64,000 bases of DNA, from NCBI GenBank assembly GCA_049302065.1, contig JBAQLU010000202.1, forward strand, positions 254-64,253. Reading direction: 5' to 3'. Numbering within the stretch: the stretch's first letter is position 1; each line of letters starts with the position of its first letter. Positions 1,957 through 39,570 of this stretch are shown here, one piece after another. The notes under the pieces are model-generated. The model ran no database searches and was not told where the DNA came from. It saw only the letters and a list, made by a program, of their open reading frames with translations. Made by a program: the position numbers and the translations under genes. Source of the stretch: Thermodesulfovibrionales bacterium (GTDB lineage Bacteria > Nitrospirota > Thermodesulfovibrionia > Thermodesulfovibrionales > SM23-35).

Positions 1957-2519
1957 TGCCAAGACCGAAGAAATATAGCTGTATCAAATGCAAACCTGAT
2001 GCTACCTATTTTAAGCCGATAGGCATTATTCATTCCCCGTTCAAGGATGTGCGTGGTATGCCCATCCAGCCGGCAGGCGCCAAGGGTGTTGCGGGAACTA
2101 TAGAAATTGAACCAGACTATATTGATGGCCTCAGAGATATCGAAGGCTTTTCTCATATTATCCTCATTTATCATTTCCACCTCTCCGGCGCATATTCTCT
2201 CTTGGTGAAACCTTTCCTGGATGACACGCTACGCGGTGTTTTTTCGACAAGGGCGCCGAGACGGCCAAATTCTATAGGCGTATCCGTAGTCAGACTGACA
2301 AGGGTGGAGGGGTGCATGCTTTTCATTGAAGATGTGGATATCGCAGATGGTACGCCTCTGCTGGATATAAAGCCTTATGTGCCGGAATTCGATGATAGAA
2401 AAGACGTGCGGACAGGGTGGCTCGCTCACAAGGCAGATAACGTACAATCGGCAAAAGCGGATGAAAGGTTTGGAAGAACAAAAGATACGGTTCAACAGAA
2501 CTCAAATAAAGGAACATGA
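1956..2519 (+). CDS. TsaA/YaeB (TrmO)-family methyltransferase-fold protein carrying a DUF134-like N-terminal 21-aa module
   Basis: Family blocks PIGIIHSPF, GFSHIILIYHFH, RRPNSIGVSVVRL and GTPLLDIKPY. The first 21 aa, MPRPKKYSCIKCKPDATYFKP, mirror MPRPKKFRCVKCKPDTNYFKP of the DUF134 protein at 10866. The stop overlaps the next start (ATGA). Confidence 0.7.
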   Translation: MPRPKKYSCIKCKPDATYFKPIGIIHSPFKDVRGMPIQPAGAKGVAGTIEIEPDYIDGLRDIEGFSHIILIYHFHLSGAYSLLVKPFLDDTLRGVFSTRAPRRPNSIGVSVVRLTRVEGCMLFIEDVDIADGTPLLDIKPYVPEFDDRKDVRTGWLAHKADNVQSAKADERFGRTKDTVQQNSNKGT

Positions 2520-3853
2520 TTCAGTCAATTACGACAAAAATTATTTTGGACAGTATTGCAGACGGGGTGTTTACTGTTGACGGAGATTGGAATATAACCT
2601 CTTTTAACCGGGCTGCCGAGCGAATAACAGGCATAACTTTCCAAAAGGCGATCGGCCAGAAATGCTTTGATGTTTTTCACGCCAATATTTGTCAGACGGC
2701 GTGTGCGTTGCGAGAGACGCTGAAGACCGGCAAAGAGATCATAGACCGGACGGTGAATATCCTTAACCATGAAGGAAAAGTTATTCCGGTCTCCATCAGC
2801 ACCGCTGTCTTGAAAGACGAAAGACGCAACATTATAGGCGGGGTGGAGACATTCAGGGATCTCTCAGCGTTGGAGGCTCTGAAAAAAGAAATCTCACGTC
2901 AATATTCAGTCGATGATATTATCAGCAAGAATCATAAAATCCAGGAGATTTTCGATATCCTTCAGGACATTGCTGAGAGTGAAAGCACTGTCCTGATTCA
3001 TGGAGAAAGCGGCACCGGCAAAGAACTTTTTGCCAGGGCAATCCATAATCTCAGCAGACGGAAAAAGTTCCCGTTTGTCGCAATAAATTGCGGAGCACTG
3101 CCTGACAACCTCCTGGAATCAGAACTCTTTGGATATAAAAAAGGCGCTTTTACCGATGCCAGAAAAGATAAGCCGGGTCGCTTTGCTATTGCTGAAGGTG
3201 GCACTATTTTTTTAGATGAAATCGGGGACCTCCCGCTTTTCCTTCAGGCCAAGCTTCTCCGTGTCCTGCAGGAGAAAGAGTATGAACCCCTGGGCGCTAT
3301 AAGCCCTGTAAAAGCAAATGTGCGTATCATTGCGGCCACAAATAAGAATCTTCAGTCGATGATTACCCAGGAAAAATTCAGAGAAGATCTTTTCTATCGC
3401 CTCAATATCGTAAAATTGGAACTCCCGCCACTTCGGGGCAGGAAAGAGGACATCCCTCTCCTTGTTGAGCACGTGATAAAAAAATTGAACCTGAAAAAAG
3501 GCAGGAATATAACGGGAATCTCGGACAGTGCACTACAGCTTTTTATGACCTATGATTTCCCTGGTAATATCAGGGAGCTTGAAAATCTTTTGGAGCATGC
3601 TTTTGTTATGTGCCGGAGCGGGGAGATCGGAAGCGGGCATCTGCCCGTGGAATTTCGAGATGCGGTAACAGTACCAAAAACCTCCGAAAATAATATCTCG
3701 TTGCGAGGCCGTTTCAAGGAATCCGAAGCAGAAATCGTCAGGGACACGTTAAAGAGGAACCATGGTCACCGTGGTCAAACGGCCAGAGAACTGGGGATAG
3801 ATTCAAGCACGCTCTGGAGGAAAATGAAACGGCTTGGCATAACGGACACGTAA
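2516..3853 (+). CDS. Sigma54-dependent transcriptional activator (PAS - AAA+ - Fis-type HTH)
   Basis: 445 aa. N-terminal PAS domain, Walker A GESGTGKE and Walker B TIFLDEIG. The sigma54-contact loop reads GAFTDA (canonical GAFTGA). C-terminal HTH TARELGIDSSTLWRKMKRLGI. Confidence 0.9.
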   Translation: MIQSITTKIILDSIADGVFTVDGDWNITSFNRAAERITGITFQKAIGQKCFDVFHANICQTACALRETLKTGKEIIDRTVNILNHEGKVIPVSISTAVLKDERRNIIGGVETFRDLSALEALKKEISRQYSVDDIISKNHKIQEIFDILQDIAESESTVLIHGESGTGKELFARAIHNLSRRKKFPFVAINCGALPDNLLESELFGYKKGAFTDARKDKPGRFAIAEGGTIFLDEIGDLPLFLQAKLLRVLQEKEYEPLGAISPVKANVRIIAATNKNLQSMITQEKFREDLFYRLNIVKLELPPLRGRKEDIPLLVEHVIKKLNLKKGRNITGISDSALQLFMTYDFPGNIRELENLLEHAFVMCRSGEIGSGHLPVEFRDAVTVPKTSENNISLRGRFKESEAEIVRDTLKRNHGHRGQTARELGIDSSTLWRKMKRLGITDT

Positions 3854-3860: not shown

Positions 3861-3901
3861 ATATTGCAATCCTGCATTGTCTCTTTGCAAGACATTGCAT
3901 T
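3861..3901. promoter_or_regulatory. Putative enhancer (UAS) for the sigma54 promoter at 3984
   Basis: ATATTGCAAT (3861-3870) plus the imperfect palindrome TTTGCAAG-AC-ATTGCATT (3884-3901). This is the same motif as at 8780-8816. Its centre lies about 93 bp upstream of the -24 GG. Confidence 0.5.
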
Positions 3902-3983
3902 TTAGCAGTATATTACTCAGCTTAAAATTGTTTCGTCAACTTAACCTTTTGATTTAGTTGGCTTATTTCGCTTAATCCCCATC

Positions 3984-3999
3984 TGGTATTTTTTTTGCT
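3984..3999 (+). promoter_or_regulatory. Sigma54 (-24/-12) promoter
   Basis: TGGTAT-TTTTT-TTGCT, with GG-N10-GC spacing exact. Intergenic and oriented toward the mrp/apbC-like gene. The conserved positions match the site at 8898. Confidence 0.6.
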
Positions 4000-4039
4000 T
4001 TATTCGGAGAGATACATATGTGATTCCCTGTATTCCTGT

Positions 4040-4135
4040 CGCAGGGATCCCATTTAGTACCTCCCCCTTGATGGAGAAACGAGGGATAGAGGACCGGTTG
4101 TTCAGTTTTCCCCCTCCTCTATCACCTCCCCTCAA
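4040..4135. repeat. C-run/G-run hairpin-rich repeat in the 5' UTR of the mrp-like gene
   Basis: CCCCC/GGGG-type segments (ctcccccttgatgg..., ttttccccctcctctatcacctcccctcaaggg) related to elements at 5371, 12739 and 61758. Track ORF 3941..4135 (-) is just a translation of this repeat. Confidence 0.35.
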
Positions 4136-4207
4136 GGGCGGTAGTGTATTATCAATATGCCTTGAGCCTGCTGAAGGATATAAAAATAAATAGTAAGGAG
4201 CTATGCA

Positions 4208-5098
4208 ATGGACAACGTTAGTGAAGGAAAAGAAGCCGCGAACATTTGTTCGTCAAAAAAACGTATCAGCAAGGATGATATCGAGGAACTTAAAGAGAAG
4301 CTTATGCTTGAGCAAAACCTTTGCGATGTAGACCATAAGATAATGGTCATGTCAGGTAAAGGCGGAGTAGGCAAGAGTTCTATTGCCGCGAATATCGCTG
4401 TCGGTCTTTCCCTGAAAGGGAAACAGGTCGGACTCATGGACATTGATATCCACGGACCGAGTATCCCGAAGATGGTCGGGCTTGAAGGGACACCGCTGAA
4501 ACAGTCTGAGGAAGGAATGATGCCTGTTGAATACAGCAATAATCTGAAAGTCATGTCTATCGGATTCCTGATCCGCGACAAGAAAGATGCGGTCATATGG
4601 AGGGCGCCGCTCAAGCACAGCATCATCAGGCAGTTTTTGACCGATGTCAGATGGGGAGATCTCGATTATCTTATTATTGATTGCCCGCCTGGGACCGGAG
4701 ACGAACTCATTTCGATAGCCCAGCTCCTTGAAGGAGCAGATGGCGCCGTTATTGTGACCACTCCTCAGGATGTTGCGCTCAACGATGTCAGGAAATCAAT
4801 TTCTTTCTGCCGTCACGTTGAGGTGCCTATTATCGGCGTAATAGAAAATATGAGCGGTTTTGTCTGTCCGCATTGCGGTATGTCTACTGATATTTTCAAA
4901 ACGGGCGGGGGAGAAAAAATGGCTTCGGAAATGGAAGTCCCTTTTTTGGGAAGGATACCGATCGACGCGAAAATAGTCGAACACAGTGATAGCGGAAGAC
5001 CTTTCTTACAATATGTTTCCGACTCTGAAACAGCGAAGGCGTTTGAATCCGTCATAGGCCCTCTTTTAAACCTGAACAAAGAGAAGGAGAGAAAATAA
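4208..5098 (+). CDS. Mrp/NBP35/ApbC-family Fe-S cluster carrier ATPase
   Basis: Deviant Walker A VMSGKGGVGKSS, DCPPGTGDE, and the CPHCG cluster-ligand motif. AAGGAG SD 7 nt upstream. Confidence 0.9.
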   Translation: MDNVSEGKEAANICSSKKRISKDDIEELKEKLMLEQNLCDVDHKIMVMSGKGGVGKSSIAANIAVGLSLKGKQVGLMDIDIHGPSIPKMVGLEGTPLKQSEEGMMPVEYSNNLKVMSIGFLIRDKKDAVIWRAPLKHSIIRQFLTDVRWGDLDYLIIDCPPGTGDELISIAQLLEGADGAVIVTTPQDVALNDVRKSISFCRHVEVPIIGVIENMSGFVCPHCGMSTDIFKTGGGEKMASEMEVPFLGRIPIDAKIVEHSDSGRPFLQYVSDSETAKAFESVIGPLLNLNKEKERK

Positions 5099-5099: not shown

Positions 5100-5348
5100 G
5101 TGCCGATCTATGAATATCTTTGTGATGACTGCGGCAGGCGATTCGAGATAAACCAGTCGATGCGCGATCTTCCGATTGAAATATGTCCTGAATGCAAGGG
5201 AACTGTACGGAGGATCATTTCAGGAGGAAGCGGCTTTATTTTAAAGAGCCCCGGTTCCGAACCCCCTCTTCAGCCGCGCTGCGGGAAGAGCGAAACCTGC
5301 TGTGGCAGCAAAACACCCTGTGAGACGCCTTCCTGTGAATCCGGATAA
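5100..5348 (+). CDS. FmdB-family zinc-ribbon protein
   Basis: MPIYEYLCDDCGRRFE...CPECKG is the family signature. Cys-rich C-terminal tail. GTG start 1 nt after the mrp stop. Confidence 0.8.
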   Translation: MPIYEYLCDDCGRRFEINQSMRDLPIEICPECKGTVRRIISGGSGFILKSPGSEPPLQPRCGKSETCCGSKTPCETPSCESG

Positions 5349-5856: not shown

Positions 5857-6545
5857 ATGAAAGAACTTATTCCCGTCGAAATAATCGAGAAAAAATCTAT
5901 CTGATTCGAGGCCACAAGGTCATGCTTGACAGCGATCTTGCCGAACTTTACGGCGTGGAAACGAAGCGACTCAATGAACAGGTTCACAGGAATCTAAAGC
6001 GATTTCCGGATGATTTCATGTTTCAGCTTACAGAGGAAGAAGCGGAATCTCTAAGGTCGCATTTTGCGACCTTAAAAAGCGGCAGGGGAAGACATCGAAA
6101 ATACTTACCCTATGCTTTTACCGAGCAGGGCGTTTCTATGCTCTCAAGTGTGTTGAACAGCGATCTGGCAATTGAGGTAAATGTCCAGATCATACGGACG
6201 TTTGTGAAGCTCCGCGAGATGCTGGAGCTTTTTAATCAATTCAGAGAGCGGGTCTTGAATCTCGATTCTTCCGTAACCGAGGAAATCCTGAAGCTTTATA
6301 TAGCGTACAAATCCTCAACGAACTTTGTTGATGTTGTGCCCCAGAAAAGCAGGTTGAGGCTCTCTATCAATATGCGTTTCAGCGAGATGGACGACCCGAA
6401 GGGTCTGTGCAAGGATGTGACGAATCTTGGCAGCTGGGGTAATGGAGACGTGGAGGACGGCCTCAGTTCAGCGGAGCAACTTGACGATGTAATGTATCTC
6501 GTTACTCAGTCGTTTGAGAAGAATCTGGATAATGAGGGGCAGTGA
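5857..6545 (+). pseudogene. Frameshifted, chimeric ORF6N (KilA-N-like) / DUF5655-like gene remnant
   Basis: ATG at 5857 gives MKELIPVEIIEKK, then a stop. The family sequence continues as IYLIRGHKVMLDSDLAELYGV in the next frame. The break is an A6 run (5890-5895) where A7 would restore the frame. The C-terminal half (YIAYKSSTNFVDVVPQKSRLRLSINM...DPKGL...WGNGD) resembles DUF5655 rather than an ORF6N C-terminus. Confidence 0.7.
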
Positions 6546-6762
6546 GGTTGATGAGAGGGGGAATTAAGTGATTGGAAAATGCAGAATGCAAGAAACAAGA
6601 CTTGACCCCACGCGTGCGTGGTGATAATCGATATAACAAATGTCATTGGAATCTCAGAGGTAAATGCTGAACAATGGGTGAATAGTCTGAAAGAAGCAGG
6701 TAAGCTTAAAGAAAGGCAATATAAGGAGAAAAAATATTATTCATGCCCTTTGGGGCGATAAA

Positions 6763-7512
6763 ATGGGAGGTATGAAGTCTGAAAGGTATGCAATCTTGAA
6801 TATGAAAATAACAGTCATATATGACAATAACTCTTATAAGGCAGGATTAGACGCCTCATGGGGTTTTTCCTGTTTTATAGAGGGAACTGAGAAAACTATA
6901 CTTTTTGATACCGGCAGTAACCCTTTTTTACTTTTGAGGAATATAAAGTGTTTGAAAATCGATCCTGGAGATATTGATTTGATTTTTCTTTCCCATATGC
7001 ATTGGGATCATATAGGTGGATTATATGGAATTATTGAAAATAACCCTGCTGTTACTGTTTTTCTGTTAGAATCTTTTTCCAAACGATATAAAGATGATAT
7101 TAAGAAATTTGGAACAAAAATATTTGAAGCCGGAAAACCTGTTAGAATCTGCAAGGATGTTTTTTCTACCGGTGAATTAGGGAAATCGATAAAAGAGCAA
7201 TCCTTGATTGTCCATACGAACAGAGGTTCAGTAGTGATAACCGGATGTGCGCATCCAGGCATTGTAACAATAATAAAAAAGGCAAAAGACATTATTAAGG
7301 ATGAAATATTATTGGTAATTGGTGGTTTTCATTTAGGAGCCGAAACTAAAATGGAAAAGATTGTCTCAAATATTAGGAAATTGGGTGTCCGATATGTCGG
7401 TCCCTGTCATTGTACAGGAGATAATGCAAAACAATTGTTCCAAAGAGTATATGGTGAAAATTCTATCCATGTAGGCGCAGGAAAAGTAATAAACATAAAT
7501 GATTTGAAATGA
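6763..7512 (+). CDS. MBL-fold metallo-hydrolase
   Basis: SHMHWDHIGG (HxHxDH) with later conserved His/Cys residues. The start is uncertain; MKITVIYDN at 6802 is an alternative. Confidence 0.8.
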   Translation: MGGMKSERYAILNMKITVIYDNNSYKAGLDASWGFSCFIEGTEKTILFDTGSNPFLLLRNIKCLKIDPGDIDLIFLSHMHWDHIGGLYGIIENNPAVTVFLLESFSKRYKDDIKKFGTKIFEAGKPVRICKDVFSTGELGKSIKEQSLIVHTNRGSVVITGCAHPGIVTIIKKAKDIIKDEILLVIGGFHLGAETKMEKIVSNIRKLGVRYVGPCHCTGDNAKQLFQRVYGENSIHVGAGKVININDLK

Positions 7513-7719
7513 AAACCTTGAATGAGATAGAAGATGGTATGAGTAACGGTAATCCTTGACGGTTTAGATGTGAGACAGCATTTTCATATTCTACAAACAA
7601 TCTTTCATAAACCAGAGGAAATAACCGCTTTGGAGCCTATAAGAGATGGATACGGAGAGGGCCTTTTTGTTGTACTTTCTGCTCAAAAAGAAGAAACAAT
7701 TTCAAGGAGGTAGTTCAAG

Positions 7720-8712
7720 TTGGTAAAGGACATCATCACGAAATCGTTAGACAGAAACATGCTCACCAAAGAAGAGATTGCTTTATTATTTAAGGTTCCC
7801 CTGTTCTCTGAAGAATCGGCGATGATCATTGCAGCATCCCGAAAAAAGAGCGAGTCAGCAAGCAGCGGGTTAGCTGAAGTTCATGCACAGGTGGGATTAA
7901 ATATAGCCCCATGTCCCAAGAACTGTGCTTTCTGTTCTTTCGCAGTCAGAAATAAGGTTTTCACTGAAAAGATTGAGATTTCGGTCGATGAAGCTGTTCA
8001 AAAAGCACAGCAGTTCGAAACCGATGGAGCAAATGCTGTTTTTGTTATGAGCACAGCGGATTATCCATTTGAAAAGTTTATCGATATTTCCCAGGAAATC
8101 AGAAAATCTCTTCATTCAGAAACAATACTTGTTGCAAATGTCGGTGATTTCACCAAAGAACAGGCAAGAAAATTGAAAGATACCGGGTTCTCTGGCATTT
8201 ATCATGCTGTTCGACTGGGCGAAGGAAAAGATACGAACATCCAGGTTGAAACAAGGCTGGAGACATTTAGAAATGCAAGAGAAGTCGGTTTGTCATTAGG
8301 AACGTGTGTAGAACCGGTTGGGAATGAACACAGCGTTGAGGAGTTAGTCGAAAAAACGATCATCACCCGTGATGCGAAACCTGTATACAGTGGTTCAGCA
8401 AGACGCATACCCATCCCTAATACCCAAATGGCGGAATACGGCATTGTCAGCGAGGCCAGGATGGCGCATATACTTGCTGTTGTGAGATTGGCGCTTGGAT
8501 ATGATATCCCAGGGAACTGTACTCATGAACCTAATGTCATAGGAGCAGCAGCCGGAGCGAATCTCTTGTGGGCTGAGGCTGGATCTAACCCCCGTGATAC
8601 GGAGAAGGAAACGGAAGGCAAACGTGGCATGACTGTAAGGGATTGTATGAAAGTATTAGAAGAAGCAGAATGGAAGGCGCTACAAGGTCCGTCAAAATTT
8701 TATGGAGCATAG
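7720..8712 (+). CDS. Radical SAM protein (BioB/HydE-like subgroup)
   Basis: CPKNCAFCSF (CxxxCxxC) near residue 65 and a TIM-barrel-length body. TTG start with an AAGGAGG SD 9 nt upstream. Confidence 0.8.
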   Translation: MVKDIITKSLDRNMLTKEEIALLFKVPLFSEESAMIIAASRKKSESASSGLAEVHAQVGLNIAPCPKNCAFCSFAVRNKVFTEKIEISVDEAVQKAQQFETDGANAVFVMSTADYPFEKFIDISQEIRKSLHSETILVANVGDFTKEQARKLKDTGFSGIYHAVRLGEGKDTNIQVETRLETFRNAREVGLSLGTCVEPVGNEHSVEELVEKTIITRDAKPVYSGSARRIPIPNTQMAEYGIVSEARMAHILAVVRLALGYDIPGNCTHEPNVIGAAAGANLLWAEAGSNPRDTEKETEGKRGMTVRDCMKVLEEAEWKALQGPSKFYGA

Positions 8713-8779
8713 ATTCTTTATTACAATAGCTAATCATCTCACCCTTACTTTTTAAATAATCGCACGTCAGGTTTATTGT

Positions 8780-8816
8780 GATATTGCATTCTATATTTGC
8801 AATACATTGCAAATAT
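8780..8816. promoter_or_regulatory. Putative enhancer (UAS): 24-bp perfect palindrome plus a half-site
   Basis: ATATTTGCAAT-AC-ATTGCAAATAT at 8793-8816 (11-2-11, perfect), preceded by the half-site ATATTGCAT (8781-8789). The centre lies about 95 bp upstream of the -24 GG at 8899. Confidence 0.55.
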
Positions 8817-8897
8817 GCAGTAGGTGATTTTTTATCCGCAAACATCCTCTATACGCTAACGTTTTGATTAATCTGCATATTTCAAATTATTCCTTCC

Positions 8898-8913
8898 TGG
8901 TATATTGTTTGCT
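8898..8913 (+). promoter_or_regulatory. Sigma54 (-24/-12) promoter
   Basis: TGGTAT-ATTGT-TTGCT with exact GG-N10-GC spacing, intergenic. The predicted TSS (about 8923-8926) falls almost on the ATG at 8928, so the mRNA would be nearly leaderless. Confidence 0.6.
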
Positions 8914-8927
8914 TTATGTATTTTGTT

Positions 8928-9293
8928 ATGAAAATAGCCATCCCAATATTCGAAAACAGGATTTCTCCACGGTTTGATTGTGCTCCGGGTTTCAGATTAT
9001 GCGAAATGGAAGGAGACAGGATAACGGGTATCCATGAGATATCCTGTGAGGGATGGAATGATATGGACAGGGTTTCCCGATTAAAGGTACTGGGAATTGA
9101 TACCCTTATTTGCGGTGGTATTCCGGATTATCTGCTCAGCGTCCTTGCGAACAGCGGTATCAAGGTTATCCCCTGGGTAGCGGGCGATACCAGCGAGGCA
9201 TTAACCCTTTTTCTCCGGGGGCAATTGAACTCGGGTACGGTCATCTGCCCGGGAAGGAAAAGACGCCGCTGCAAGAGAGGCATAAAGGTTTAG
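8928..9293 (+). CDS. NifX/NifB-C-terminal-family (FeMo-cofactor-binding fold) protein 1
   Basis: MKIAIPIFENRISPRFDCAPGF is a typical N-terminus for the family. The track start at 8916 adds 4 aa and is less likely. Confidence 0.75.
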   Translation: MKIAIPIFENRISPRFDCAPGFRLCEMEGDRITGIHEISCEGWNDMDRVSRLKVLGIDTLICGGIPDYLLSVLANSGIKVIPWVAGDTSEALTLFLRGQLNSGTVICPGRKRRRCKRGIKV

Positions 9294-9352: not shown

Positions 9353-9721
9353 ATGAAACTCTGTATTAGTTCTACGGGAAGTGGTCTGGAGTCAACGGTT
9401 GACCCCAGATTTGGAAGGTGTCGGTACTTTCTTTTGATTGACACCGAAACGATGAATGTCGAGACTGTGGGAAATCCCGCTTTTATAGCAGGCGGCGGAG
9501 CAGGGATACAGGCTGCCCAGTTGGTAGTTAATAAAGGGGCAAAAGTGGTTCTCACCGGAGATGTCGGACCGAATGCCTTTCAGGCCCTTCAAGCCGGCGG
9601 TGTAAAGATAGTTACAGGCGCTCAGGGTTCGGTCAAAGATGTAATTGAAAGATTTAACAAAGGTGAACTCGGGTATGCCGGAGCCGCTTCAGTTGAATCG
9701 CACGCCGGGATGAGGAGGTGA
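9353..9721 (+). CDS. NifX/NifB-C-terminal-family protein 2
   Basis: MKLCISSTG...VDPRFGRCRYFLLID...VVLTGDVGPNA are typical family blocks. Confidence 0.8.
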   Translation: MKLCISSTGSGLESTVDPRFGRCRYFLLIDTETMNVETVGNPAFIAGGGAGIQAAQLVVNKGAKVVLTGDVGPNAFQALQAGGVKIVTGAQGSVKDVIERFNKGELGYAGAASVESHAGMRR

Positions 9722-9726: not shown

Positions 9727-9942
9727 ATGCCGAGAGGAACTGGATCAGGATCAACGAATGCAGGAACTGGAATGGGATCGGGTAAGGGAAGGTGTGGAGG
9801 AGGAAGGGGAGGCAGCAGGTCCGGCGGTCCCGGAGGTGAATGCATCTGCCTCTCCTGCGGAGCGACAGCAATCCACCAGGCAGGCACTCCCTGTTATCAG
9901 GTGAAATGCCCCAAGTGTGGGGTAAGTATGGCAAGGAAATAA
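9727..9942 (+). CDS. DUF5320-family small Gly/Cys-rich protein
   Basis: MPRGTGSGSTNAGTGMGSGKGRCGGGRGG, then CICLSCG...CPKCG. GGAGG SD 8 nt upstream of the ATG at 9727. Confidence 0.7.
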   Translation: MPRGTGSGSTNAGTGMGSGKGRCGGGRGGSRSGGPGGECICLSCGATAIHQAGTPCYQVKCPKCGVSMARK

Positions 9943-9956: not shown

Positions 9957-10835
9957 ATGATTATCTCAATTGCGAGCGGAAAAGGAGGAACGGGCAAGAC
10001 TACCTTAACCGCTGCATTCGCCCATCTTGCCGATAATGCCATGATTGCTGATTGCGACGTTGATGCAGCCGACCTTCATCTTATACTGACACCGGATATC
10101 ATCAGACAGGAGCCATTTTACGGAGGCCAACTGCCTTCTATTGATTATGATCGATGCACCCAGTGCGGGTTATGTGAACAACAATGCCGTTTTGGAGCCA
10201 TCCAGGCTGTAAAGGTCGATCCTGTCTCCTGCGAAGGTTGCGGGGTCTGTGCTTACGTTTGTCCTGAACAGGCCATATCCATGAAGGAAAGACTTTCCGG
10301 CAACTGGTTTTTATCTGAAACAAGAGAAGGCTGGATGGTTCACGCACGGCTGGGAATAGCAGCGGAAAATTCCGGGAAGCTTGTCTCCATGGTCCGTCAG
10401 CAGGCGAAGGAACTGGCTGAAAAGGAGAAGAAGAATCTCGTTATCATTGACGGTCCGCCCGGCATTGGTTGTCCGGTAATAGCCTCAATAGGCGGTGTAA
10501 ACCTTGTTCTTGTTGTGACAGAGCCGACCCTTTCGGGAATCCACGATTTAAAAAGGATTCTCGAAGTAGCAACCCATTTTAATATCCCGGCGATGGTATG
10601 CGTCAATAAATGTGATATCAATGCTGAAAATACCCTCGCCATAGAAGGTTATTGTGCGGGAAAAGGGATTGCTATAGCAGGCAGCATCCCATATGCACCG
10701 GAAGTAACCAAGGCTATGCTGAACGGGCTCTCCGTAGTGGAATATCCCTGTGCTCAAGTGACCGTCGAAGTGAAAAGGATATGGAGAAAGGTTGAAGAGT
10801 ATCTTTTTGCCGAGTCGCATAATCTTTTCGCTTGA
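9957..10835 (+). CDS. MinD/ParA-type P-loop ATPase with inserted 2x[4Fe-4S] ferredoxin domain
   Basis: IASGKGGTGKTT Walker A, plus CTQCGLCEQQC and CEGCGVCAYVCP ferredoxin motifs. The in-frame ATG at 9957 has an AAGGAGA SD. The track extension back to 9840 overlaps the DUF5320 gene. Confidence 0.85.
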   Translation: MIISIASGKGGTGKTTLTAAFAHLADNAMIADCDVDAADLHLILTPDIIRQEPFYGGQLPSIDYDRCTQCGLCEQQCRFGAIQAVKVDPVSCEGCGVCAYVCPEQAISMKERLSGNWFLSETREGWMVHARLGIAAENSGKLVSMVRQQAKELAEKEKKNLVIIDGPPGIGCPVIASIGGVNLVLVVTEPTLSGIHDLKRILEVATHFNIPAMVCVNKCDINAENTLAIEGYCAGKGIAIAGSIPYAPEVTKAMLNGLSVVEYPCAQVTVEVKRIWRKVEEYLFAESHNLFA

Positions 10836-10866
10836 TTTATTATGAGCTTATGCTCATAATAAACAA
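10832..10866 (+). promoter_or_regulatory. Sigma70-type promoter (TTGATT-N17-CATAAT) with an embedded 28-bp palindromic operator; predicted leaderless transcript
   Basis: -35 at 10832-10837 and -10 at 10855-10860. The ATG at 10866 has no SD. Perfect palindrome TTTATTATGAGC-TTAT-GCTCATAATAAA spans 10836-10863. Confidence 0.55.
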
Positions 10867-11156
10867 TGCCTCGGCCAAAAAAATTCAGATGTGTGAAGTG
10901 CAAACCAGATACTAATTATTTCAAACCAAGGGGAATTCCCCTGATAGAACTTGAGGAAGTCTCGATCTCAATGGATGAACTGGAGGCGCTCAGGCTTGCA
11001 GATTATGAAGAATTCTATCATGAAGAAGCCGCTGCAAATATGAAGATATCAAGGCAGACATTCGGAAGAATCTTGAATGCTGCACACAAAAAAGTTGCTG
11101 AATGTCTGTTAAAGGGCAAGGCATTGAAAATAGAGACTCAAAAAAAGGAGGAATAA
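10866..11156 (+). CDS. DUF134-family predicted DNA-binding protein
   Basis: N-terminus MPRPKKFRCVKCKPDTNYFKPRGIP, followed by an HTH-like ELEALRLADYEEFYHEEAAANMKISRQTFGRIL. Confidence 0.8.
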   Translation: MPRPKKFRCVKCKPDTNYFKPRGIPLIELEEVSISMDELEALRLADYEEFYHEEAAANMKISRQTFGRILNAAHKKVAECLLKGKALKIETQKKEE

Positions 11157-11158: not shown

Positions 11159-11539
11159 ATGAAAATATGTTTTCCGGTATCAAAAGTTAATGGGATGGAG
11201 AGCGAGGTTTACGGTCATTTCGGATCAGCGCCCGCATTCCTTGTTATCGAGACGGATGCTAACACCATAACAACAATTAATAACAAAGACCAGCATCATG
11301 TACACGGCGCGTGTAATCCAATGAAAGCCCTGAACAATCAGAACGTCGATGCAATCGTAGTTGGCGGAATCGGTGCAGGTGCATTGAGCAAGCTGAATCA
11401 ATTAGGGATTAAGGTTTTTCAGGCAAAGGCGTCAACTATTAAGGAAAATATTGCGATATTAAAGAATCAGAGCCTGCCTGAATTTTCAACATCACACTGT
11501 TGTTCAGGTCATAGCAAAATCGGTGGCTGTGGACATTAA
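11159..11539 (+). CDS. NifX/NifB-C-terminal-family protein 3
   Basis: MKICFPV...VYGHFGSAPAFLVIE...AIVVGGIGAGA. AAGGAGG SD upstream of the in-frame ATG at 11159. Confidence 0.8.
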   Translation: MKICFPVSKVNGMESEVYGHFGSAPAFLVIETDANTITTINNKDQHHVHGACNPMKALNNQNVDAIVVGGIGAGALSKLNQLGIKVFQAKASTIKENIAILKNQSLPEFSTSHCCSGHSKIGGCGH

Positions 11540-11684: not shown

Positions 11685-12056
11685 ATGGCAAAGAAAAGAA
11701 TTGCAATACTCGCATGCAAAAACATCAAGGGTATCAGTTGCGTAGCCGGCTGTCTGAAATGTTTTAAGGGCATTTCCGAGAAGGCGGGGGAATACGAGCG
11801 CTGGAAGGATTATGATATAGAAGTCATTGGCATGGATGACTGTGGCGGTTGTCCTGGTATCCTCATGCCGAAAGTTGCACTAATGATGGATATGGGTAAA
11901 TTATATGAAAGGGATTTTGATGCTATTCATCTTGGAACTTGTGTTATGAAGGCTACCCAGACTGCAAAGTGCCCCATTGATGTTGAAGATATTAAGAAAA
12001 AGATTGAAACAAAGTTTAAGAAAGAGGTGATCTTCGGCACGCATCCTTATGCGTAG
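11685..12056 (+). CDS. CGGC-domain protein
   Basis: DDCGGCPG motif plus N-terminal Cys residues. AAGGAGG SD. Confidence 0.75.
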   Translation: MAKKRIAILACKNIKGISCVAGCLKCFKGISEKAGEYERWKDYDIEVIGMDDCGGCPGILMPKVALMMDMGKLYERDFDAIHLGTCVMKATQTAKCPIDVEDIKKKIETKFKKEVIFGTHPYA

Positions 12057-12090: not shown

Positions 12091-12546
12091 ATGAGCATTT
12101 TAGTCTTCGGCATAGGTAACTTACTGCGCTCTGACGATGGAGTGGGTTTGCAGGTAATTGGAGCTCTCGGGGAGGAAAAGTTAGGAGATACTATTGATGT
12201 AATAGAAGGGTCTTCCTGTATCGATATCCTCGATGCATTAAAAGGTTACAGGAGAATCATTATTGTTGATGCGATACAGACCGGAGGTGAGCCTGGTACA
12301 ATCTATAAATTTTCCCTGGAAGATTTTAAAGATAAGCATACGATCCATTCTTACTCAACCCACCTGAATATGGATTTCCCCACTATGCTCGAATTGAGGG
12401 AAAAACTCTTTCCCGGTGAAATACCCTTAGATATCATAGTTATCGCAATAGAGGCAGAGGACATAACAACGATTTCGGATACCTGCACACCAAAGGTTCG
12501 GAAAGCTATACCAGAAGCTGTTGATATGATTAAGGGATTGATATAA
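12091..12546 (+). CDS. Hydrogenase maturation endopeptidase (HyaD/HybD/FrhD family)
   Basis: ILVFGIGNLLRSDDGVG N-terminal signature, IIIVDA and a downstream His. No hydrogenase structural gene in the window. Confidence 0.8.
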   Translation: MSILVFGIGNLLRSDDGVGLQVIGALGEEKLGDTIDVIEGSSCIDILDALKGYRRIIIVDAIQTGGEPGTIYKFSLEDFKDKHTIHSYSTHLNMDFPTMLELREKLFPGEIPLDIIVIAIEAEDITTISDTCTPKVRKAIPEAVDMIKGLI

Positions 12547-21666: not shown

Positions 21667-23343
21667 ATGAAAAAAGGGTGGATTGTTTTTATTGTTGGAC
21701 TGTGCTATCTCATCTTGATTATTTACGGCATCGGCAGTATATATTCCAATGAAACCCCAATGGAGGTGAAGAAACCTGTTCAGAAAATCCCTGTTCAAAA
21801 ACTGGATGATAAAATTTCTATTGCCCATACAGCTATCTTTGGGGCATTGGAACGTCCGCAGGTGATTTTCGACCATAAGAAACATATTGATGAATTGATA
21901 AAGGATGGCAAAAAAGAATGGGAGACCTGTGACTCCTGCCATCCCTGGAATGAGGACAAAACGCAAATGTCCTTTATCTTCCCCAAAAAAGTTGCGAAAA
22001 AAGATAAAGATTCCTATATGAATGCTTACCACGATGAGTGCATGAATTGTCATAAAGAGAGAAGCCAGCAGAAAAAGAAGGGTGGCCCGGTGACCTGTGG
22101 CGATTGCCATCCGGAAAAGCTTTCCACAGTGCAATATAAATATCCGATCATGGAGTTCACTTACGAACATCATGACAACCACGATAAAAAATTAAAAGAA
22201 AAGAATATTCAGGATAGCTGTATTTACTGCCATCATATATATAATGAAGAAAGTGTTTATGAAAAAGGAAAGGAATGGTCATGTTATTACTGCCACGAGA
22301 TAGGTAGGAAGACAGGACCGGTTCTTGCAGTTGAGACAAGAATTATCGGTAAGAAAGGCCTCGGTTTAGAAAAAGTCTCCCACATGCGCTGCCTGAACTG
22401 CCATCTTTACTTTAAAAAGCAAGATGAAGGAAAGATCAAGGCAAAAGACGAAAAAGAAGCTCCCCTTGAATGTGTGAAATGCCATACTGGCAAATACAAG
22501 ACAGTTGCCGAACTGGAAAAGGTTCCACGCCCTGACAGCGGGCAGTCTGAAAAGGCATTTTTAGAGATAGAAAAGTCCAAGATGAAGGGGGTTCCGTTTG
22601 ACCATAAGGCCCATCAAACCAAATCCAAGACATGCAGGGGATGCCATCACGAAACACTGAACGCATGCAAGGAATGTCATACGCTTGTTGGAAATCCTGA
22701 CGGTAATAACGTCAATCTTGCCGGCGCTTACCATGATATTTCCTCTGAAAAAAGCTGTTCAGGATGTCATTTTGTGCAGCAATCTGCAAAAGATTGTAAT
22801 GGGTGCCACCATGCTCTTATGCCTGTTGATGCCCAGACAAAAGGACCAAAGAAAGCAATCTGTGCAATCTGCCATTCCGGAAAGCGCGAACTTCTTCCTG
22901 CAACAAAGCTTTCTGTGAAAGGACTCGATACAGAGAAGGTCAAAAAGGAGGTTGAAGTAAAGATTCTTGAGAGAGAATATGACCCTTCAAAATTACCTCA
23001 TGTGAAGATCATCGAAAAAATGACACAGATCTCGAACGATGACAAATTGGCTTCCTATTTCCACAGGAATCTCCAGACTCTCTGTGAAGGATGCCACCAC
23101 CAGAGCAGGGCCGAGGCTGAAGCCAAGAAAGACGAGCCGCCCTATTGCAGGAACTGCCATTCCATTGCTTTTGATCCGCAGCGCCTTAACAGGCCGCGGC
23201 TTCTTGCTGCTTATCATCGCCAGTGTATACAGTGTCATGAAAAGATGGAACTCAAGAAACCAAAGGAATGTAAGGAATGTCATAAGGAAAAGGAAGTGCG
23301 CCCGACGGATATTCTTTCAAAACCAGCGGAAACAAGCCGGTAG
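21667..23343 (+). CDS. 16-haem c-type cytochrome (HmcA-like) with N-terminal signal/anchor helix
   Basis: 558 aa. I count sixteen CxxCH motifs (CDSCH, CMNCH, CGDCH, CIYCH, CYYCH, CLNCH, CVKCH, CRGCH, CKECH, CSGCH, CNGCH, CAICH, CEGCH, CRNCH, CIQCH, CKECH). Hydrophobic N-terminus. Confidence 0.85.
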   Translation: MKKGWIVFIVGLCYLILIIYGIGSIYSNETPMEVKKPVQKIPVQKLDDKISIAHTAIFGALERPQVIFDHKKHIDELIKDGKKEWETCDSCHPWNEDKTQMSFIFPKKVAKKDKDSYMNAYHDECMNCHKERSQQKKKGGPVTCGDCHPEKLSTVQYKYPIMEFTYEHHDNHDKKLKEKNIQDSCIYCHHIYNEESVYEKGKEWSCYYCHEIGRKTGPVLAVETRIIGKKGLGLEKVSHMRCLNCHLYFKKQDEGKIKAKDEKEAPLECVKCHTGKYKTVAELEKVPRPDSGQSEKAFLEIEKSKMKGVPFDHKAHQTKSKTCRGCHHETLNACKECHTLVGNPDGNNVNLAGAYHDISSEKSCSGCHFVQQSAKDCNGCHHALMPVDAQTKGPKKAICAICHSGKRELLPATKLSVKGLDTEKVKKEVEVKILEREYDPSKLPHVKIIEKMTQISNDDKLASYFHRNLQTLCEGCHHQSRAEAEAKKDEPPYCRNCHSIAFDPQRLNRPRLLAAYHRQCIQCHEKMELKKPKECKECHKEKEVRPTDILSKPAETSR

Positions 23344-23369
23344 AAATCCGGTAGAAAGAGGAGGATTGG

Positions 23370-23483
23370 ATGTATATCTTTGAACAACTATTTTCCCATC
23401 ACGGATACGAATATGCTGTTGCCGTTTTGGCAATGTTTATTTTTATATTATTCTATTTTATCCTCACTTCAGAAAGAAAATAA
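23370..23483 (+). CDS. 37-aa single-helix membrane peptide (possible HmcD-like small subunit)
   Basis: Absent from the ORF track because it is under 60 aa. AGAGGAGG SD 5-6 nt before the ATG. MYIFEQLFSHHGYEYAVAVLAMFIFILFYFILTSERK has one hydrophobic helix. Confidence 0.45.
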   Translation: MYIFEQLFSHHGYEYAVAVLAMFIFILFYFILTSERK

Positions 23484-23502
23484 ATGGCATGGAGGCTAAC
23501 TC

Positions 23503-24531
23503 ATGAGTATTGATAGAAGAGAATTCCTGAAGCGCTCTTTAACCATGGCAGGCACTACATTGCTCAGTGGTGGAACCATAGCCCATGCTATAGATAAACG
23601 TGATCCGTCCATTCTCTCTACCGGCAACACAGCCAATGAAAGAAACTGGAAGTTATGGGTTGAGAAGTCTGAGACCCTTGTTCCTGAAAAATATGGAGTT
23701 CTTGTTGATACAACGGTCTGTATCGGATGCCGGAGATGTGAGTGGGCATGCAATGAATGGAATAAAAATCCAAACAGACCGATAAAAGAGTTTGAAGCGT
23801 CGGTATCTCAGCAAAAATCTGCTTTCGATACGGTGCGGAGAATGCACGCCGGAAATTTTACCGTAGTAAATCGCTATATGAGCTCCAAAGACGGAAAACC
23901 TATATATGTAAAAAGGCAGTGTATGCACTGCGATGATCCGGGGTGTTTATCTTCGTGCTTTGTTGATGCATACAGGAAGGCGAAAAACGGTCCGGTTCTC
24001 CATAATGCAGGAGTGTGTATAGGGTGCCGTTATTGTATGGTAGCCTGTCCTTTTGACGTGCCTGCCTATGAGTATTACGCACCCCTGAATCCGCAAATCA
24101 CAAAATGTACGTTCTGCTTCGATAGAATCTCGAAAGGAAGTGTGCCGGCCTGTGTCGAGATTTGCCCCGCCGGAGTACTGACCTTCGGAAAAAGAAACGA
24201 TCTCATGAAGCTTGCTTACGAAAGGATAGGAAATAGCCCTAATAAATATGTCGATCATGTATATGGAGAGCACGAGGTAGGAGGTACAAGCTGGCTCTAT
24301 CTGTCATCAGTTCCTTTCCACGAAATAGGTCTGAGAACAGATCTCGGGAAAACACCTATACCGGAACTAACCAAGGGGTTTCTTCTTGGAGTAAAGGTGT
24401 TCGAGATAGTCGCTGCATGGCCTCTTGTTTTCGGGGCCTATTATGCAATCTCAAAGGCTCGTGAAAAAACAAGATCGGGACATGAAACGTCTGTTGAAGG
24501 AAAGGGAGAAGGTCATGGCGAAAAACACTAA
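23503..24531 (+). CDS. Periplasmic 4x[4Fe-4S] ferredoxin subunit (HmcB/DsrO/NrfC-like) with Tat signal and C-terminal anchor helix
   Basis: DRREFLKRSL twin-arginine motif. Cys clusters CIGCRRCEWAC, CMHCDDPGCLSSC, CIGCRYCMVACP and CTFC...CVEICP. Hydrophobic VFEIVAAWPLVFGAYYAI near the C-terminus. Confidence 0.85.
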   Translation: MSIDRREFLKRSLTMAGTTLLSGGTIAHAIDKRDPSILSTGNTANERNWKLWVEKSETLVPEKYGVLVDTTVCIGCRRCEWACNEWNKNPNRPIKEFEASVSQQKSAFDTVRRMHAGNFTVVNRYMSSKDGKPIYVKRQCMHCDDPGCLSSCFVDAYRKAKNGPVLHNAGVCIGCRYCMVACPFDVPAYEYYAPLNPQITKCTFCFDRISKGSVPACVEICPAGVLTFGKRNDLMKLAYERIGNSPNKYVDHVYGEHEVGGTSWLYLSSVPFHEIGLRTDLGKTPIPELTKGFLLGVKVFEIVAAWPLVFGAYYAISKAREKTRSGHETSVEGKGEGHGEKH

Positions 24532-25729
24532 TTCTTGGTTTAGAGAAAAGATACTTCTTGGAAAATCCAATAGAGATTTTATTATCAGTTGTGCTACACC
24601 GGGGAATTTCATTGCAGGTTTTATTCTGTTCTATGCGGTTATCGTAATGATTTATCGTCTTTTCTTTGGCCTTGGACCAGCGACAAATCTAACAGATAAC
24701 TATCCATGGGGTTTCTGGATCGGATTTGATATACTTGTCGGAATCGCGTTAGCAGCTCCGGGTTTAACCCTTGGAACAGCAGTACATCTCTTTGGGATGA
24801 AGCAATATCACCATTTTGTACGTCCGGCGATTCTCTCAAGCCTTCTCGGGTATATTTTTGCGGTATTTGCACTTCTGTTTGACCTTGGCCGTTATTATCG
24901 CATCCCTTACCTCTTAGTATGGTCGTGGGGATTTTCTTCAGTATTGTTCTTAATAGGTTGGCACTTTACGCTTTATATTAATATTTGTCTCATTGAGTGG
25001 AGTCCTGCTCTCTTTGAATGGTTGAATCTCAGGAAGCTCCGGGAATTTTTTCAAAAGATGGCGATATGGGCAACCATTTTCGGAGTCATTATAGCCGGTG
25101 GCCATCAGTCTGCACTTGGTGGTTTGTATCTTATTGCTCCTGCAAAACTCCATCCCCTCTGGTATTCAATGTTCTTGCCTGTATTTTTCCTCCTGTCCGC
25201 TGTATTCGCAGGAATTTCTATGGTGATTTTTGAGAGTACCATTACCCACAGAGTTTTCAAAAGTCAGCTTAAAAATTTCAATCAAGCTGAATTTGACAAA
25301 CGCACCATTGGCCTCGGTACGGCAGCAGCAGCAGGTTTGTTCATCTATTTTATTCTAAAAATATTTGATATTGCTCATTATGGCAACTGGGCATATCTGA
25401 ATACTTTCTATGGATTCTGGTATTTGGTTGAGGTAATTGGGTTTGTTCTCCTGCCGGCTATGCTCTTTACATCGGGAGTAAGAAACCGGAATGCAAAGCT
25501 TATACGTCTTACAGGATTTTTGACCGTATGTGGTGTTATATTAAACCGATTGAATATATCTATCTTTGCATATAATTGGCAATTCCCCGCCTCAATGAAG
25601 TATTACCCAAAATGGATGGAGATTATGCTGTCAATCGGCGTGGTTACTATGGTAGTTATTGCCTATCGGTTTATTGTAAAACGGATGGCTATCATGCACG
25701 ATCACCCTGATTATGAATCAGGGCACTAA
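24515..25729 (+). CDS. NrfD/PsrC/HmcC/DsrP-like polytopic quinone-interacting membrane subunit
   Basis: Highly hydrophobic multi-helix protein. The in-frame ATG at 24515 with a GGGAGAAGG SD gives a 17-nt overlap with the upstream gene. The track start at 24425 is rejected. Confidence 0.8.
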   Translation: MAKNTNSWFREKILLGKSNRDFIISCATPGNFIAGFILFYAVIVMIYRLFFGLGPATNLTDNYPWGFWIGFDILVGIALAAPGLTLGTAVHLFGMKQYHHFVRPAILSSLLGYIFAVFALLFDLGRYYRIPYLLVWSWGFSSVLFLIGWHFTLYINICLIEWSPALFEWLNLRKLREFFQKMAIWATIFGVIIAGGHQSALGGLYLIAPAKLHPLWYSMFLPVFFLLSAVFAGISMVIFESTITHRVFKSQLKNFNQAEFDKRTIGLGTAAAAGLFIYFILKIFDIAHYGNWAYLNTFYGFWYLVEVIGFVLLPAMLFTSGVRNRNAKLIRLTGFLTVCGVILNRLNISIFAYNWQFPASMKYYPKWMEIMLSIGVVTMVVIAYRFIVKRMAIMHDHPDYESGH

Positions 25730-32700: not shown

Positions 32701-32892
32701 TTGCTCACGCAAGACCGACAGCATCACCACTTCGGTAAAGCTCTGGCGAAAGCTGTCACTCGGGTGCTGTTTGCTGTCGAGGTCGAGGATTTCCCAGCCC
32801 AAGCCCGCAAGCTGGTCGAGTAAGGGTTTCTCGACGTGCTTGCGCTCGTCTATTCTCAAGTACGAAGTTTGAGGGGTAAAGTTTGAAGTCAC
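29701..32892 (-). CDS. hsdR: Type I restriction enzyme R subunit
   Basis: 1063 aa. N-terminal PD-(D/E)xK region VPDIVLFLNGLPVVVIECK, SF2 motifs HTQGSGKS and MTDEAHRSQ, and a helical C-terminus. GTG start overlaps the upstream stop (GTGA). Confidence 0.92.
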   Translation of the reverse strand: MTSNFTPQTSYLRIDERKHVEKPLLDQLAGLGWEILDLDSKQHPSDSFRQSFTEVVMLSVLREQIKVINDWLEDDQVEEVVKQLTASFPGTGLIQNNRHVFTLLLENTSVSENRQTGEKSPTVRFVDFTHRYNNRFIAVCQFKVRILGTEYHIVPDIVLFLNGLPVVVIECKSPKVKDAIPEAIDQMLRYSEQRGAKGEGSAPLFYYNQIVIATCRQEAKFGTITTHSEKYFYRWADPYPRTVDDLYHGTSGPNDQQRLVAGMLDRDNLLDLIRTFTLFGTNDKGETIKIVGRYQQFRAVKLAVKRLLEGKSPRERSGVIWHTQGSGKSLTMMFMVREMYRHAHLSHWKVVFVTDRTQLEGQLSETSQSIGFTVKVADSIKKLKELLRSDSSDLVMAMIHKFREADLTEVFPELNTSPNILVMTDEAHRSQYAQLGANFDKGLPNAARIGYTGTPIDKTERVFGDYIDKYTMRQSIEDGVTLEIVYEGRTHKAEVKDRQGMDAAFEDVFSDYNLKQRMEILGYGSRDAYLESKTTIEAKAKDMVDHYLTHVFPNGYKAQVVATSREAAVRYKTYIDAALADTFVDLEKANPQKLDLDQLKRLKTDVIISGSHNDLPHLKAFSDRSKHETSIKSFKMAFGNEDEGVTGDMGIVIVNNMLLTGFDAPVEQVMYLDKVIVAHSLLQAIARVNRVAGEAKDKGFVVDYVGVGHHLKKAIDNYDEREQKEVLDALSFPEEELRELKASHAAIMDLLKKHGLTDLTDHDAFFDLFYDEDLRFDFMLAFKKLTKCLNLVFPARQALEYMRDYNALNEINVLAGKHFRDERLSMKGIPPKLRSITDAWLESKGIDVKIEPISILDQDFEKQVGKRNRTKTKAAEVEHAIRHHLDIELDDDPDLQASFAEALAKIFEEFRNNWKKIYEELEKLRARIINAGKEPTYGLHRKKQMPFFRMFEREIFGEGTAGNVFDLLKVAEATPPYGISREDRISHLVDLTQKAFLAVERELKLTGFWESIPARSKLRAELQKILLAPEFAKLPRIVKNRAHIISRLMEIAEKKNDIILYAE

Positions 32893-33743: not shown

Positions 33744-33769
33744 CTTCCGCTCCCTTTATCCCTTTTCTA

Positions 33770-33952
33770 TCAGGGTTTGATATAGGCATTCAGGCCGATG
33801 ATGACAGGTTTGTCGTTTACTTTGGCGGTGGTAACAGCATTTCCCCTCGTGCTCGCAACCACAAGTGTTTTGCCGGATGCCGACGGAGTGGGCGTTTCCA
33901 GGTCAATTTCGATATAAAGCTTGTTGTCCTTGATTTCAACTTTCATTGCCAT
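33770..33952 (-). CDS. 60-aa hypothetical protein
   Basis: AAGGAGA SD 7 nt before the ATG at 33952. MAMKVEIKDNKLYIEIDLETPTPSASGKTLVVAST... The track ORF upstream extension is read-through from the hsdR fragment. Confidence 0.5.
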   Translation of the reverse strand: MAMKVEIKDNKLYIEIDLETPTPSASGKTLVVASTRGNAVTTAKVNDKPVIIGLNAYIKP

Positions 33953-34016
33953 TGGTATATCTCCTTTTCTTGATTGATTTTGATTCCATTGCTTTGCTGC
34001 GTGCCTCAATGAAGCC

Positions 34017-34127
34017 GTCGAGGTCGAGAATCTCCCAGCCCAGCCCGGCAAGCTGGTCGAGCAAGGGTTCCTCGACGTGGTTGCGTTCGTCGAGTTTGAT
34101 GTGCTGATGTGTTTTGTCCAGGGTCAT
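34017..34127 (-). pseudogene. Remnant of an hsdR 5' end (first ~37 codons)
   Basis: MTLDKTHQHIKLDERNHVEEPLLDQLAGLGWEILDLD compares with hsdR ...YLRIDERKHVEKPLLDQLAGLGWEILDLD. The nucleotide sequences of 34017-34090 and 32775-32850 are visibly near-identical. Confidence 0.75.
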
Positions 34128-34159
34128 ATATTTGCCTATTTTAATAACCTACAGACCGC

Positions 34160-35682: not shown

Positions 35683-35762
35683 TATCTCCCTTGCGAACGG
35701 GGCAATTCACGGCTTACCCCGAAGTCTTTTATGTTGGGTAGTTGCCCAATTGCCCAAACGAC

Positions 35763-36929: not shown

Positions 36930-36987
36930 GTTGCTCTCCTAATATACAAAGTCTAATAGAATTTATCGTATAATCCATGGTTTCCCA

Positions 36988-38265: not shown

Positions 38266-38305
38266 TTCACTCTTCCCCCTGCAAACTTCACCCCTGATCC
38301 TGCAC

Positions 38306-39523: not shown

Positions 39524-39570
39524 ATCTATCGTATTATTGCCGATATTATTACCTATTCTTAACAATTCTA

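Follow-up and report, generated by a model that had tools for sequence, protein, structure and literature searches.

What controls the NifX-like gene cluster that begins at position 8928 of a stretch of contig JBAQLU010000202.1 (assembly GCA_049302065.1), from an uncharacterised anaerobe of the order Thermodesulfovibrionales? The whole stretch analysed here, 64,000 nucleotides in length, is referred to as the window. An earlier interpretation of its letters (the sequence-only reading) had placed a sigma-54 promoter with a palindromic enhancer in front of the cluster, and had pointed to the single enhancer-binding protein (EBP) of the window. For the follow-up, we computed the architecture of the region, its duplication within the window, the family hallmarks of the regulator, cross-phylum conservation and covariation. 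Taken together, these features indicate that the segment 8783-8913 is very probably the enhancer and promoter of an operon for the orange-protein (orp) complex, controlled by the neighbouring OrpR-like activator. The hallmarks of OrpR occur together with orp-type genes, so the window appears to hold a member of the known system formed by OrpR, sigma-54 and integration host factor (IHF).

Predicted Enhancer and Promoter Elements of P1

The region directly upstream of the cluster, designated P1, carries the following elements.

8783-8789: auxiliary TGCA-core half-site of P1, ATTGCAT
8793-8816: main predicted OrpR-like site of P1, a perfect 11-2-11 palindrome, ATATTTGCAAT-AC-ATTGCAAATAT
8857-8869, minus strand: IHF-like site of P1, AATCAAAACGTTA, a consensus match 41 nt upstream of the TGG
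8898-8913, plus strand: -24/-12 element of P1, TGGTATATTGTTTGCT, reading TGGTAT-N5-TTGCT with GG-N10-GC spacing

The -24/-12 motif stands at 8898-8913 with the letters and exact spacing that the sequence-only reading had given, and the pattern TGGYAY-N5-TTGCW has 2 matches in the 64-kb window versus 0.23 expected. The palindrome that had been placed about 95 bp upstream is indeed perfect. It spans 82-105 nt upstream of the TGG, with its centre 93.5 nt from the T of that triplet, and the extra half-site claimed beside it is present as ATTGCAT. Inverted repeats that are perfect over arms of 11 nt or more, with spacers of at most 6 nt, are found in only 3 places of the window, compared with 0.1 per dinucleotide shuffle.

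A Second Copy of the Architecture

A scan of the window for TGGYAY-N5-TTGCW, a pattern for which the sequence-only reading had proposed a whole-genome scan, locates the second match at 3984-3999, and the same enhancer layout precedes it. This second promoter, P2, occupies the gap directly after the EBP gene, ahead of a gene for a Mrp/NBP35-type ATPase.

3864-3900: upstream activating sequence of P2, with TTGCAA at 3864-3869, TGCAT at 3873-3877 and TTGCAAGACATTGCAT at 3885-3900
3942-3954, minus strand: IHF-like site of P2, AATCAAAAGGTTA (consensus WATCAANNNNTTR), 42 nt upstream of the TGG
3984-3999, plus strand: -24/-12 element of P2, TGGTATTTTTTTTGCT, reading TGGTAT-N5-TTGCT

The two promoters resemble each other in spacing and in letters. 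At both, the TGCA cores follow one another at 13 and 10 nt, and the extended -12 region TTGCTTTAT is common to them. The distance from the palindrome centre to the T of the TGG is 91.5 nt at P2 versus 93.5 nt at P1, and that from the IHF-like site to the TGG is 42 nt versus 41 nt. Over 153 aligned nucleotides, the identity of P1 and P2 amounts to 63%. Sixteen loose sigma-54 candidates were found in the window, and only P1 and P2 are preceded by five TTGCA/TGCAA cores at -160 to -30. In 64 kb, the IHF consensus is matched only six times, and two of these matches lie at the corresponding offset in P1 and P2; given this scarcity, their common position is telling. Matches of the WATCAANNNNTTR type are also seen in relatives.

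The canonical +1 of P2 is predicted at ~4010, which would give a leader of 198 nt. The predicted leader (4008-4208) folds, with -64.8 kcal/mol (z = -2.7), into an extended hairpin that is not perfectly paired. Neither Rfam nor tRNA models match anywhere in the window, the P2 leader included. A repeated mobile element was also considered for this stretch of ~200 nt and is ruled out by its single-copy occurrence in the window.

A Putative OrpR-Type Regulator

The gene that ends just upstream of P2 encodes the putative activator of both promoters.

2516-3853, plus strand: OrpR-like EBP (Pfam: PAS, sigma-54 AAA+, C-terminal HTH_8)

The six frames of the window contain a single Walker-A/GAFT(D)A signature, which makes this PAS-AAA+ protein the only EBP there, as the sequence-only reading had stated. 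Its PAS domain contains a cysteine triad, Cys50/Cys59/Cys63, arranged as C-x8-C-x3-C. The spacing is that of C52/C61/C65 in OrpR of Desulfovibrio vulgaris Hildenborough (DvH), where these residues ligate a [4Fe-4S] cluster and are needed for the sensor function of the PAS domain (PMC3897727, PMC8359166). The sigma-54 contact loop reads KGAFTDA, a rare variant of GAFTGA, and a GAFTDA loop is given for DVU2106/OrpR (PMC4641369). Homologues have either GAFTDA or GAFTGA, so the loop is a weak criterion for OrpR. The recognition helix of HTH_8, the C-terminal helix-turn-helix (HTH) domain, is STLWRKMKR. The published hallmarks, that is, domains, cysteine triad and GAFTDA loop, support the assignment of the protein as a putative OrpR-type EBP.

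No exact match to the EBP came up in the contig collection; the best relatives stand at 78% (metagenome contig L081) and 65% (L001, a metagenome-assembled genome (MAG) of the Thermodesulfobacteriota). The ATG of the regulator gene overlaps the stop codon of an upstream TrmO-like gene (ATGA, 2516-2519), an overlap that suggests co-transcription of the two. A TrmO homologue is found in the orp locus L019 as well, ~8 kb from the regulator.

Conservation and Covariation in Related Loci

Relatives of the regulator were found at 160 loci in two collection scans. A common gene order, namely regulator, NifX-like, ORP, MinD-Fer4 (x2), Mrp, turns up repeatedly among Desulfobacterota, Spirochaetota, Lentisphaerota and other MAGs. 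The cysteine triad accompanies orp neighbours, and in most homologues having it, it lies 160 residues before GAFT(G/D)A.

For the DNA elements, an unbiased hexamer test was applied to positions -200 to -30 at 44 non-redundant sigma-54 promoters that precede a NifX-like gene in several phyla. The most enriched hexamer is GTTGCA, present in 21 regions versus 4.2 expected (z = 8.8), followed by TTGCAA (18 regions versus 5.2, z = 6.3). The tally of TTGCA/TGCAA cores 80-160 nt upstream of the TGG is 78/112, and the P1 palindrome of the window falls in this range too. The closest relatives illustrate what is retained. L081 has four ATTGCA units after the regulator stop codon, with TAACCATTTGAAT exactly 48 nt past the last of them, like P2, and L001 has TTGCAA-tgca-TTGCAA together with TAACAATTTGATA and TGGCATCCAAAATGCA. 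Both keep the cores, the TAAC..TTTGA and the spacing, while the sequence in between drifts.

The enhancer also varies with the regulator. TGCAA-rich enhancers accompany the helix TLWRKMK, as found in the window, in 8/14 cases, versus 0/27 where F, Y or R stands at that position. This covariation gives a Mann-Whitney p of 5e-4, in a crude test that sets counts below 3 to zero and draws on loci that are not phylogenetically independent. The enhancer geometry that the sequence-only reading had recognised as typical of an EBP is supported by its duplication at P2, by the OrpR hallmarks of the EBP and the orp-type operon, by cores at the same position in the 44 related promoters and by covariation with the HTH helix.

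Some related promoters differ in their repeats. At L086:1860-2210 (minus strand), a 61%-identical regulator has the helix VTLWRKLK, and TTGAAAT/ATTTCAA repeats replace TTGCAA upstream of the sigma-54 promoter; they may represent a one-base operator switch. At L083:1640-1880 and L084:9300-9540, the promoters before the NifX-like gene read TGGCACGCGTCTTGTT, with GT for GC at -12, and their upstream repeats are CTGCAC/GTGCAG, not TTGCAA.

Weighing the Assignment

Besides the crudeness of the covariation test, several points weigh against assigning P1 to an OrpR-type system. The -24 element of P1 reads TGGTAT, not TGGCAC. Neither an RpoN box nor ihf genes are encoded within the 64-kb window. The likeness to DVU2106 and to DVU2103-2109 is drawn from published descriptions. 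A further point concerns the operator, which is wholly unlike GGGCGYRTTTTGCGCCC, the experimentally defined OrpR site of DvH; cognate binding is therefore deduced only from position, duplication and covariation. GGGCGYRTTTTGCGCCC is absent from the P1 and P2 regions and from all 160 loci, which suggests that DNA specificity has diverged within the OrpR family.

The same mismatch lends some appeal to the idea that the palindrome is the operator of another protein, either the DUF134 product of the cluster or an unlinked repressor, with the sigma-54 promoter downstream by coincidence. The operon does encode a DUF134 protein, a member of a putative DNA-binding family. Against this idea, the same cores recur at the same offset directly after the EBP gene, they peak at -80 to -160 in the 44 related loci, and they covary with the recognition helix of the EBP. 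Moreover, many loci that bear the motif have no DUF134 homologue within the fetched DNA, and the palindrome preceding the DUF134 gene itself (10836-10863) is unrelated in sequence. We consider an operator of another protein improbable.

TTGCAA resembles TTGACA, and it could in principle serve as the -35 element of a sigma-70 promoter, with the -24/-12 match fortuitous or secondary. At P2, a scan does give TTGCAA-18-TATATT at 3885-3914, matching at 9/12 positions, but nothing comparable exists on the plus strand at P1, where a scan of 8600-9000 for sigma-70-like promoters or terminators found none. A start of this kind at P1 would give a leader of ~85 nt, still without a Shine-Dalgarno sequence. 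It would also leave unexplained why TGGTAT-N5-TTGCTTTAT is present in both promoters and why sigma-54 elements are conserved in relatives. A sigma-70 origin is accordingly very improbable.

An even smaller probability attaches to the palindrome as an RNA hairpin that terminates or stabilises the transcript of the upstream radical-SAM gene. The RNA of 8780-8840 folds at -15.2 kcal/mol (z = -2.6), with a T-run 14 nt further on. However, the stem is A/U-rich, the U-tract is not adjacent to it, and the terminator scan finds none; P2 and the relatives keep the TGCA cores, not the hairpin potential. Chance is excluded as the source of the P1 motifs, and their juxtaposition without regulatory role, for which the AT-rich region and the shortness of the motifs might speak, is the least credible explanation in view of the shuffle controls, the duplication with matching offsets and the cross-phylum conservation.

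Genes Behind P1 and P2

Control by an OrpR-like activator and sigma-54 agrees with the content of the two operons. Judged by their predicted products, the genes behind P1 and P2 are orp-type.

4208-5098, plus strand: Mrp/NBP35 (NUBPL/ParA) P-loop ATPase, Orp9-like, P2 operon (Pfam; 296 aa, single domain)
5100-5348, plus strand: Zn-ribbon protein, P2 operon
8928-9293, plus strand: first gene of the P1 operon, a divergent Nitro_FeMo-Co protein (NifX-like, Orp5-position), starting MKIAIP
9353-9721, plus strand: ORP (orange protein, Orp8) homologue of the MTH1175-like Nitro_FeMo-Co type (Pfam; best PDB match 2WFB 'ORP', E = 4e-23)
9727-9942, plus strand: small protein rich in Gly, with CxxC...CxxC at the C-terminal end and conserved across orp loci
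9957-10835, plus strand: MinD/CbiA ATPase with two 4Fe-4S ferredoxin motifs, Orp3/Orp4-like (CbiA + Fer4 x2)
10866-11156, plus strand: DUF134 protein
11159-11539, plus strand: third Nitro_FeMo-Co protein, likely start MKICFP at 11159
11685-12056, plus strand: CGGC-domain protein
12091-12546, plus strand: HycI-like maturation protease, end of the co-directional cluster

In the Mrp/NBP35 protein (4208-5098), Pfam finds no Nitro_FeMo-Co domain. Between the ORP and MinD-Fer4 genes lies an unannotated open reading frame (ORF) of 71 aa, MPRGTGSGS..., at 9727-9942. This Gly-rich ORF is kept in at least 9 related orp loci and has no Pfam match, even at E = 1; a DUF5320 label for it is not confirmed by Pfam at the same threshold. 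Its presence implies that the MinD-Fer4 gene, listed as an ORF from 9840, starts at about 9957, where the likely start MIISIASGKGG is found.

The 30-nt gap from the MinD-Fer4 stop to the DUF134 start is filled by a perfect 12-4-12 palindrome, TTTATTATGAGC-TTAT-GCTCATAATAAA, at 10836-10863. This palindrome has no sequence relation to the OrpR-type cores; it might be bound by the DUF134 protein as an operator, or it might form a hairpin within the operon. The segment between P2 and P1 (5922-8712) holds ORF6N/DUF5655, metallo-beta-lactamase-fold and radical SAM genes, which are unrelated to orp. A homologue of the radical SAM gene (53%) lies just upstream of the regulator in L006.

A First Gene with a Predicted Near-Leaderless Start

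A further peculiarity of P1 is the position of its first gene. The sequence-only reading had pointed out that the predicted start site falls within a few nucleotides of the ATG at 8928 and that no Shine-Dalgarno sequence is present, and both statements hold. The -12 C of P1 is 8912, and the canonical +1 is predicted at T8924 or G8925, which would leave a leader of 3-4 nt before the ATG. The stretch before this codon, tgctttatgtatttt, contains no Shine-Dalgarno-like word, and none of purine-rich character occurs in the preceding 15 nt. Elsewhere in the window, Shine-Dalgarno sequences are in use, as with AAGGAG before 4208 and AAAGGAGG before 11685, and about two thirds of the long ORFs have them. 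Another ATG in the same frame, at 8916, is not considered the start: it abuts or overlaps the -12 element, and homologues all begin MK(I/L)A(I/V), which corresponds to MKIAIP here.

The short spacing recurs in relatives. Counted from the T of the TGG, start-codon distances are bimodal in 45 related promoters. At 14/45 loci the distance measures 27-33 nt with no clear Shine-Dalgarno sequence, and 13/14 of these use ATG; in one of this class, L005, a weak AAGG would sit at the predicted transcript start. The remaining loci have distances of 36-127 nt and, in most cases, clear GGAG-type sites. The shortest distance among the 45 loci, 27 nt, is found exactly at 7, mostly from Spirochaetota, with a gap of 11 nt from TTGCW to ATG and spacers that are unrelated to each other. 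In this 27-nt class, the ATG is at most 1 nt from the predicted +1. Leaderless genes, we infer, should leave just such a signature, an accumulation of loci at the smallest distance that is physically possible.

With a distance of 30 nt, the window belongs to the short class and falls outside its 27-nt peak. Its ATG lies 16 nt past the -12 C, compared with 13 in the clean leaderless class, and this speaks against leaderless translation here: a strictly leaderless transcript would require a non-canonical start. We give slightly less than an even chance to a tentative proposal: the sigma-54 promoter would express the first orp gene from an mRNA with no leader or hardly any, and this would be a recurrent design under selection.

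Comparison with Known Systems

In DvH, OrpR (DVU2106), sigma-54 and IHF jointly drive two orp operons, orp1 and orp2; palindromic sites for OrpR stand at -131 and -88, and IHF sites lie in between (PMC3897727). The window shares much with this arrangement. Its regulator is likewise a single-component PAS-AAA+-HTH EBP that has a GAFTDA loop and three identically spaced PAS cysteines. Sigma-54 promoters, predicted ones in the window, again number two, and a palindromic EBP site precedes each by 90-130 nt; between the two elements lies an IHF site in DvH and a candidate IHF-like site here. The targets also correspond, with ORP, MinD-ferredoxin, Mrp/NBP35 and DUF134-type genes. The promoter and enhancer interpretation of the sequence-only reading is supported computationally; what it overlooked is the IHF-like site and the identity with the described orp/OrpR system.

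The differences are equally clear. The operator here is TTGCAAT-N2-ATTGCAA with TGCA cores, whereas DvH has GGGCGYRTTTTGCGCCC. Both operons follow orpR on the same strand, with three unrelated genes (5922-8712) between them, in contrast to the divergent operons around orpR in DvH. In DvH, Orp9 (MrpORP) has its P-loop Mrp/NBP35 domain fused to a Di-Nase domain, which is missing from the Mrp protein here. The MinD-ferredoxin ATPase is encoded once and not twice (Orp3/Orp4). Extra members are present in the form of three NifX-like genes and the CGGC, HycI-like and Gly-rich Zn-ribbon proteins, and the first gene is predicted to be almost leaderless. A literature search for OrpR outside Desulfovibrio found nothing relevant.

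Classical IHF-assisted sigma-54 promoters, such as nifH with NifA and Pu with XylR, have ordinary leaders with Shine-Dalgarno sequences. P1 resembles them in an upstream activating sequence ~100 nt upstream, a predicted IHF bend between and -24/-12 elements of the TGGTAT/TTGCT type, and it differs in regulator family, signal and regulon. Leaderless mRNAs are familiar chiefly from Actinobacteria, Deinococcus and archaea, where they arise from promoters of the sigma-70 type. The first gene of P1 is like them in its ATG start, the lack of a Shine-Dalgarno sequence and a start codon within a few nucleotides of the predicted 5' end, but its promoter is of the sigma-54 type and its predicted leader has 3-4 nt, not 0. 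A literature search found no description of leaderless sigma-54 transcripts.

Other Features of the Window

A perfect 14-1-14 palindrome, TCAGTCGGTGACAA-T-TTGTCACCGACTGA, is located at 33533-33561 inside a Bro-N-domain ORF (32889-33743, minus strand). This ORF adjoins an island of type I restriction-modification, Fic and Ser/Thr-kinase genes at 29701-42341. At 21667-25729, genes for a class III multihaem cytochrome c, a Fer4_11 protein and an NrfD-like membrane protein stand in a row and constitute a membrane redox complex of the Qrc/Hmc type, as is usual for anaerobic respirers; it would fit a Desulfobacterota-like host.

Proposed Mechanism and Implications

From these features we infer a course of activation in terms of binding, IHF dependence and bending, redox control, start sites and leaderless translation. 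The regulator would be expressed from its own upstream transcript. OrpR-like dimers would then bind three TGCA-core sites through their Fis-type HTH, at the palindrome 8793-8816 and the half-site 8783-8789, centred ~120 nt upstream of the predicted start site. With the DNA bent by an IHF-type protein at 8857-8869 (~-61), the AAA+ ring would contact the sigma-54 RNA polymerase in the closed complex on 8898-8913, and ATP hydrolysis would open P1. The transcript would start at ~8924-8925, and its first gene would be translated in leaderless fashion, from a 3-4-nt leader without a Shine-Dalgarno sequence.

If the analogy with OrpR of D. vulgaris holds, a redox-sensitive [4Fe-4S] cluster may sit on Cys50/59/63 of the PAS domain, and activity would need the cluster in its reduced state. 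The same regulator would drive the paralogous P2 (3864-3999) for the Mrp/NBP35 gene. The Mrp operon and the NifX/ORP/MinD-Fer4/DUF134 operon would then be switched on together, and only at low redox potential. The roles proposed for the Orp complex are Fe-S or Mo-Cu cluster handling and cell division.

The analysis would place the NifX-like cluster of an uncharacterised anaerobe in an OrpR/sigma-54/IHF redox regulon of the Desulfovibrio type, and this regulon appears to span Desulfobacterota, Spirochaetota, Lentisphaerota and Planctomycetota. It also provides a candidate operator for OrpR proteins outside Desulfovibrio, made up of TTGCA cores, typically TTGCAAT-N2-ATTGCAA, and tied to the helix TLWRKMK. 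The regulatory principle is already known, and the gain lies in a better definition of the regulon. More interesting than the promoter itself is the apparent class of sigma-54 promoters that make leaderless transcripts, which would be an unusual and testable combination. Should it hold true, such promoters would link enhancer-dependent transcription directly to leaderless initiation of the 70S type.

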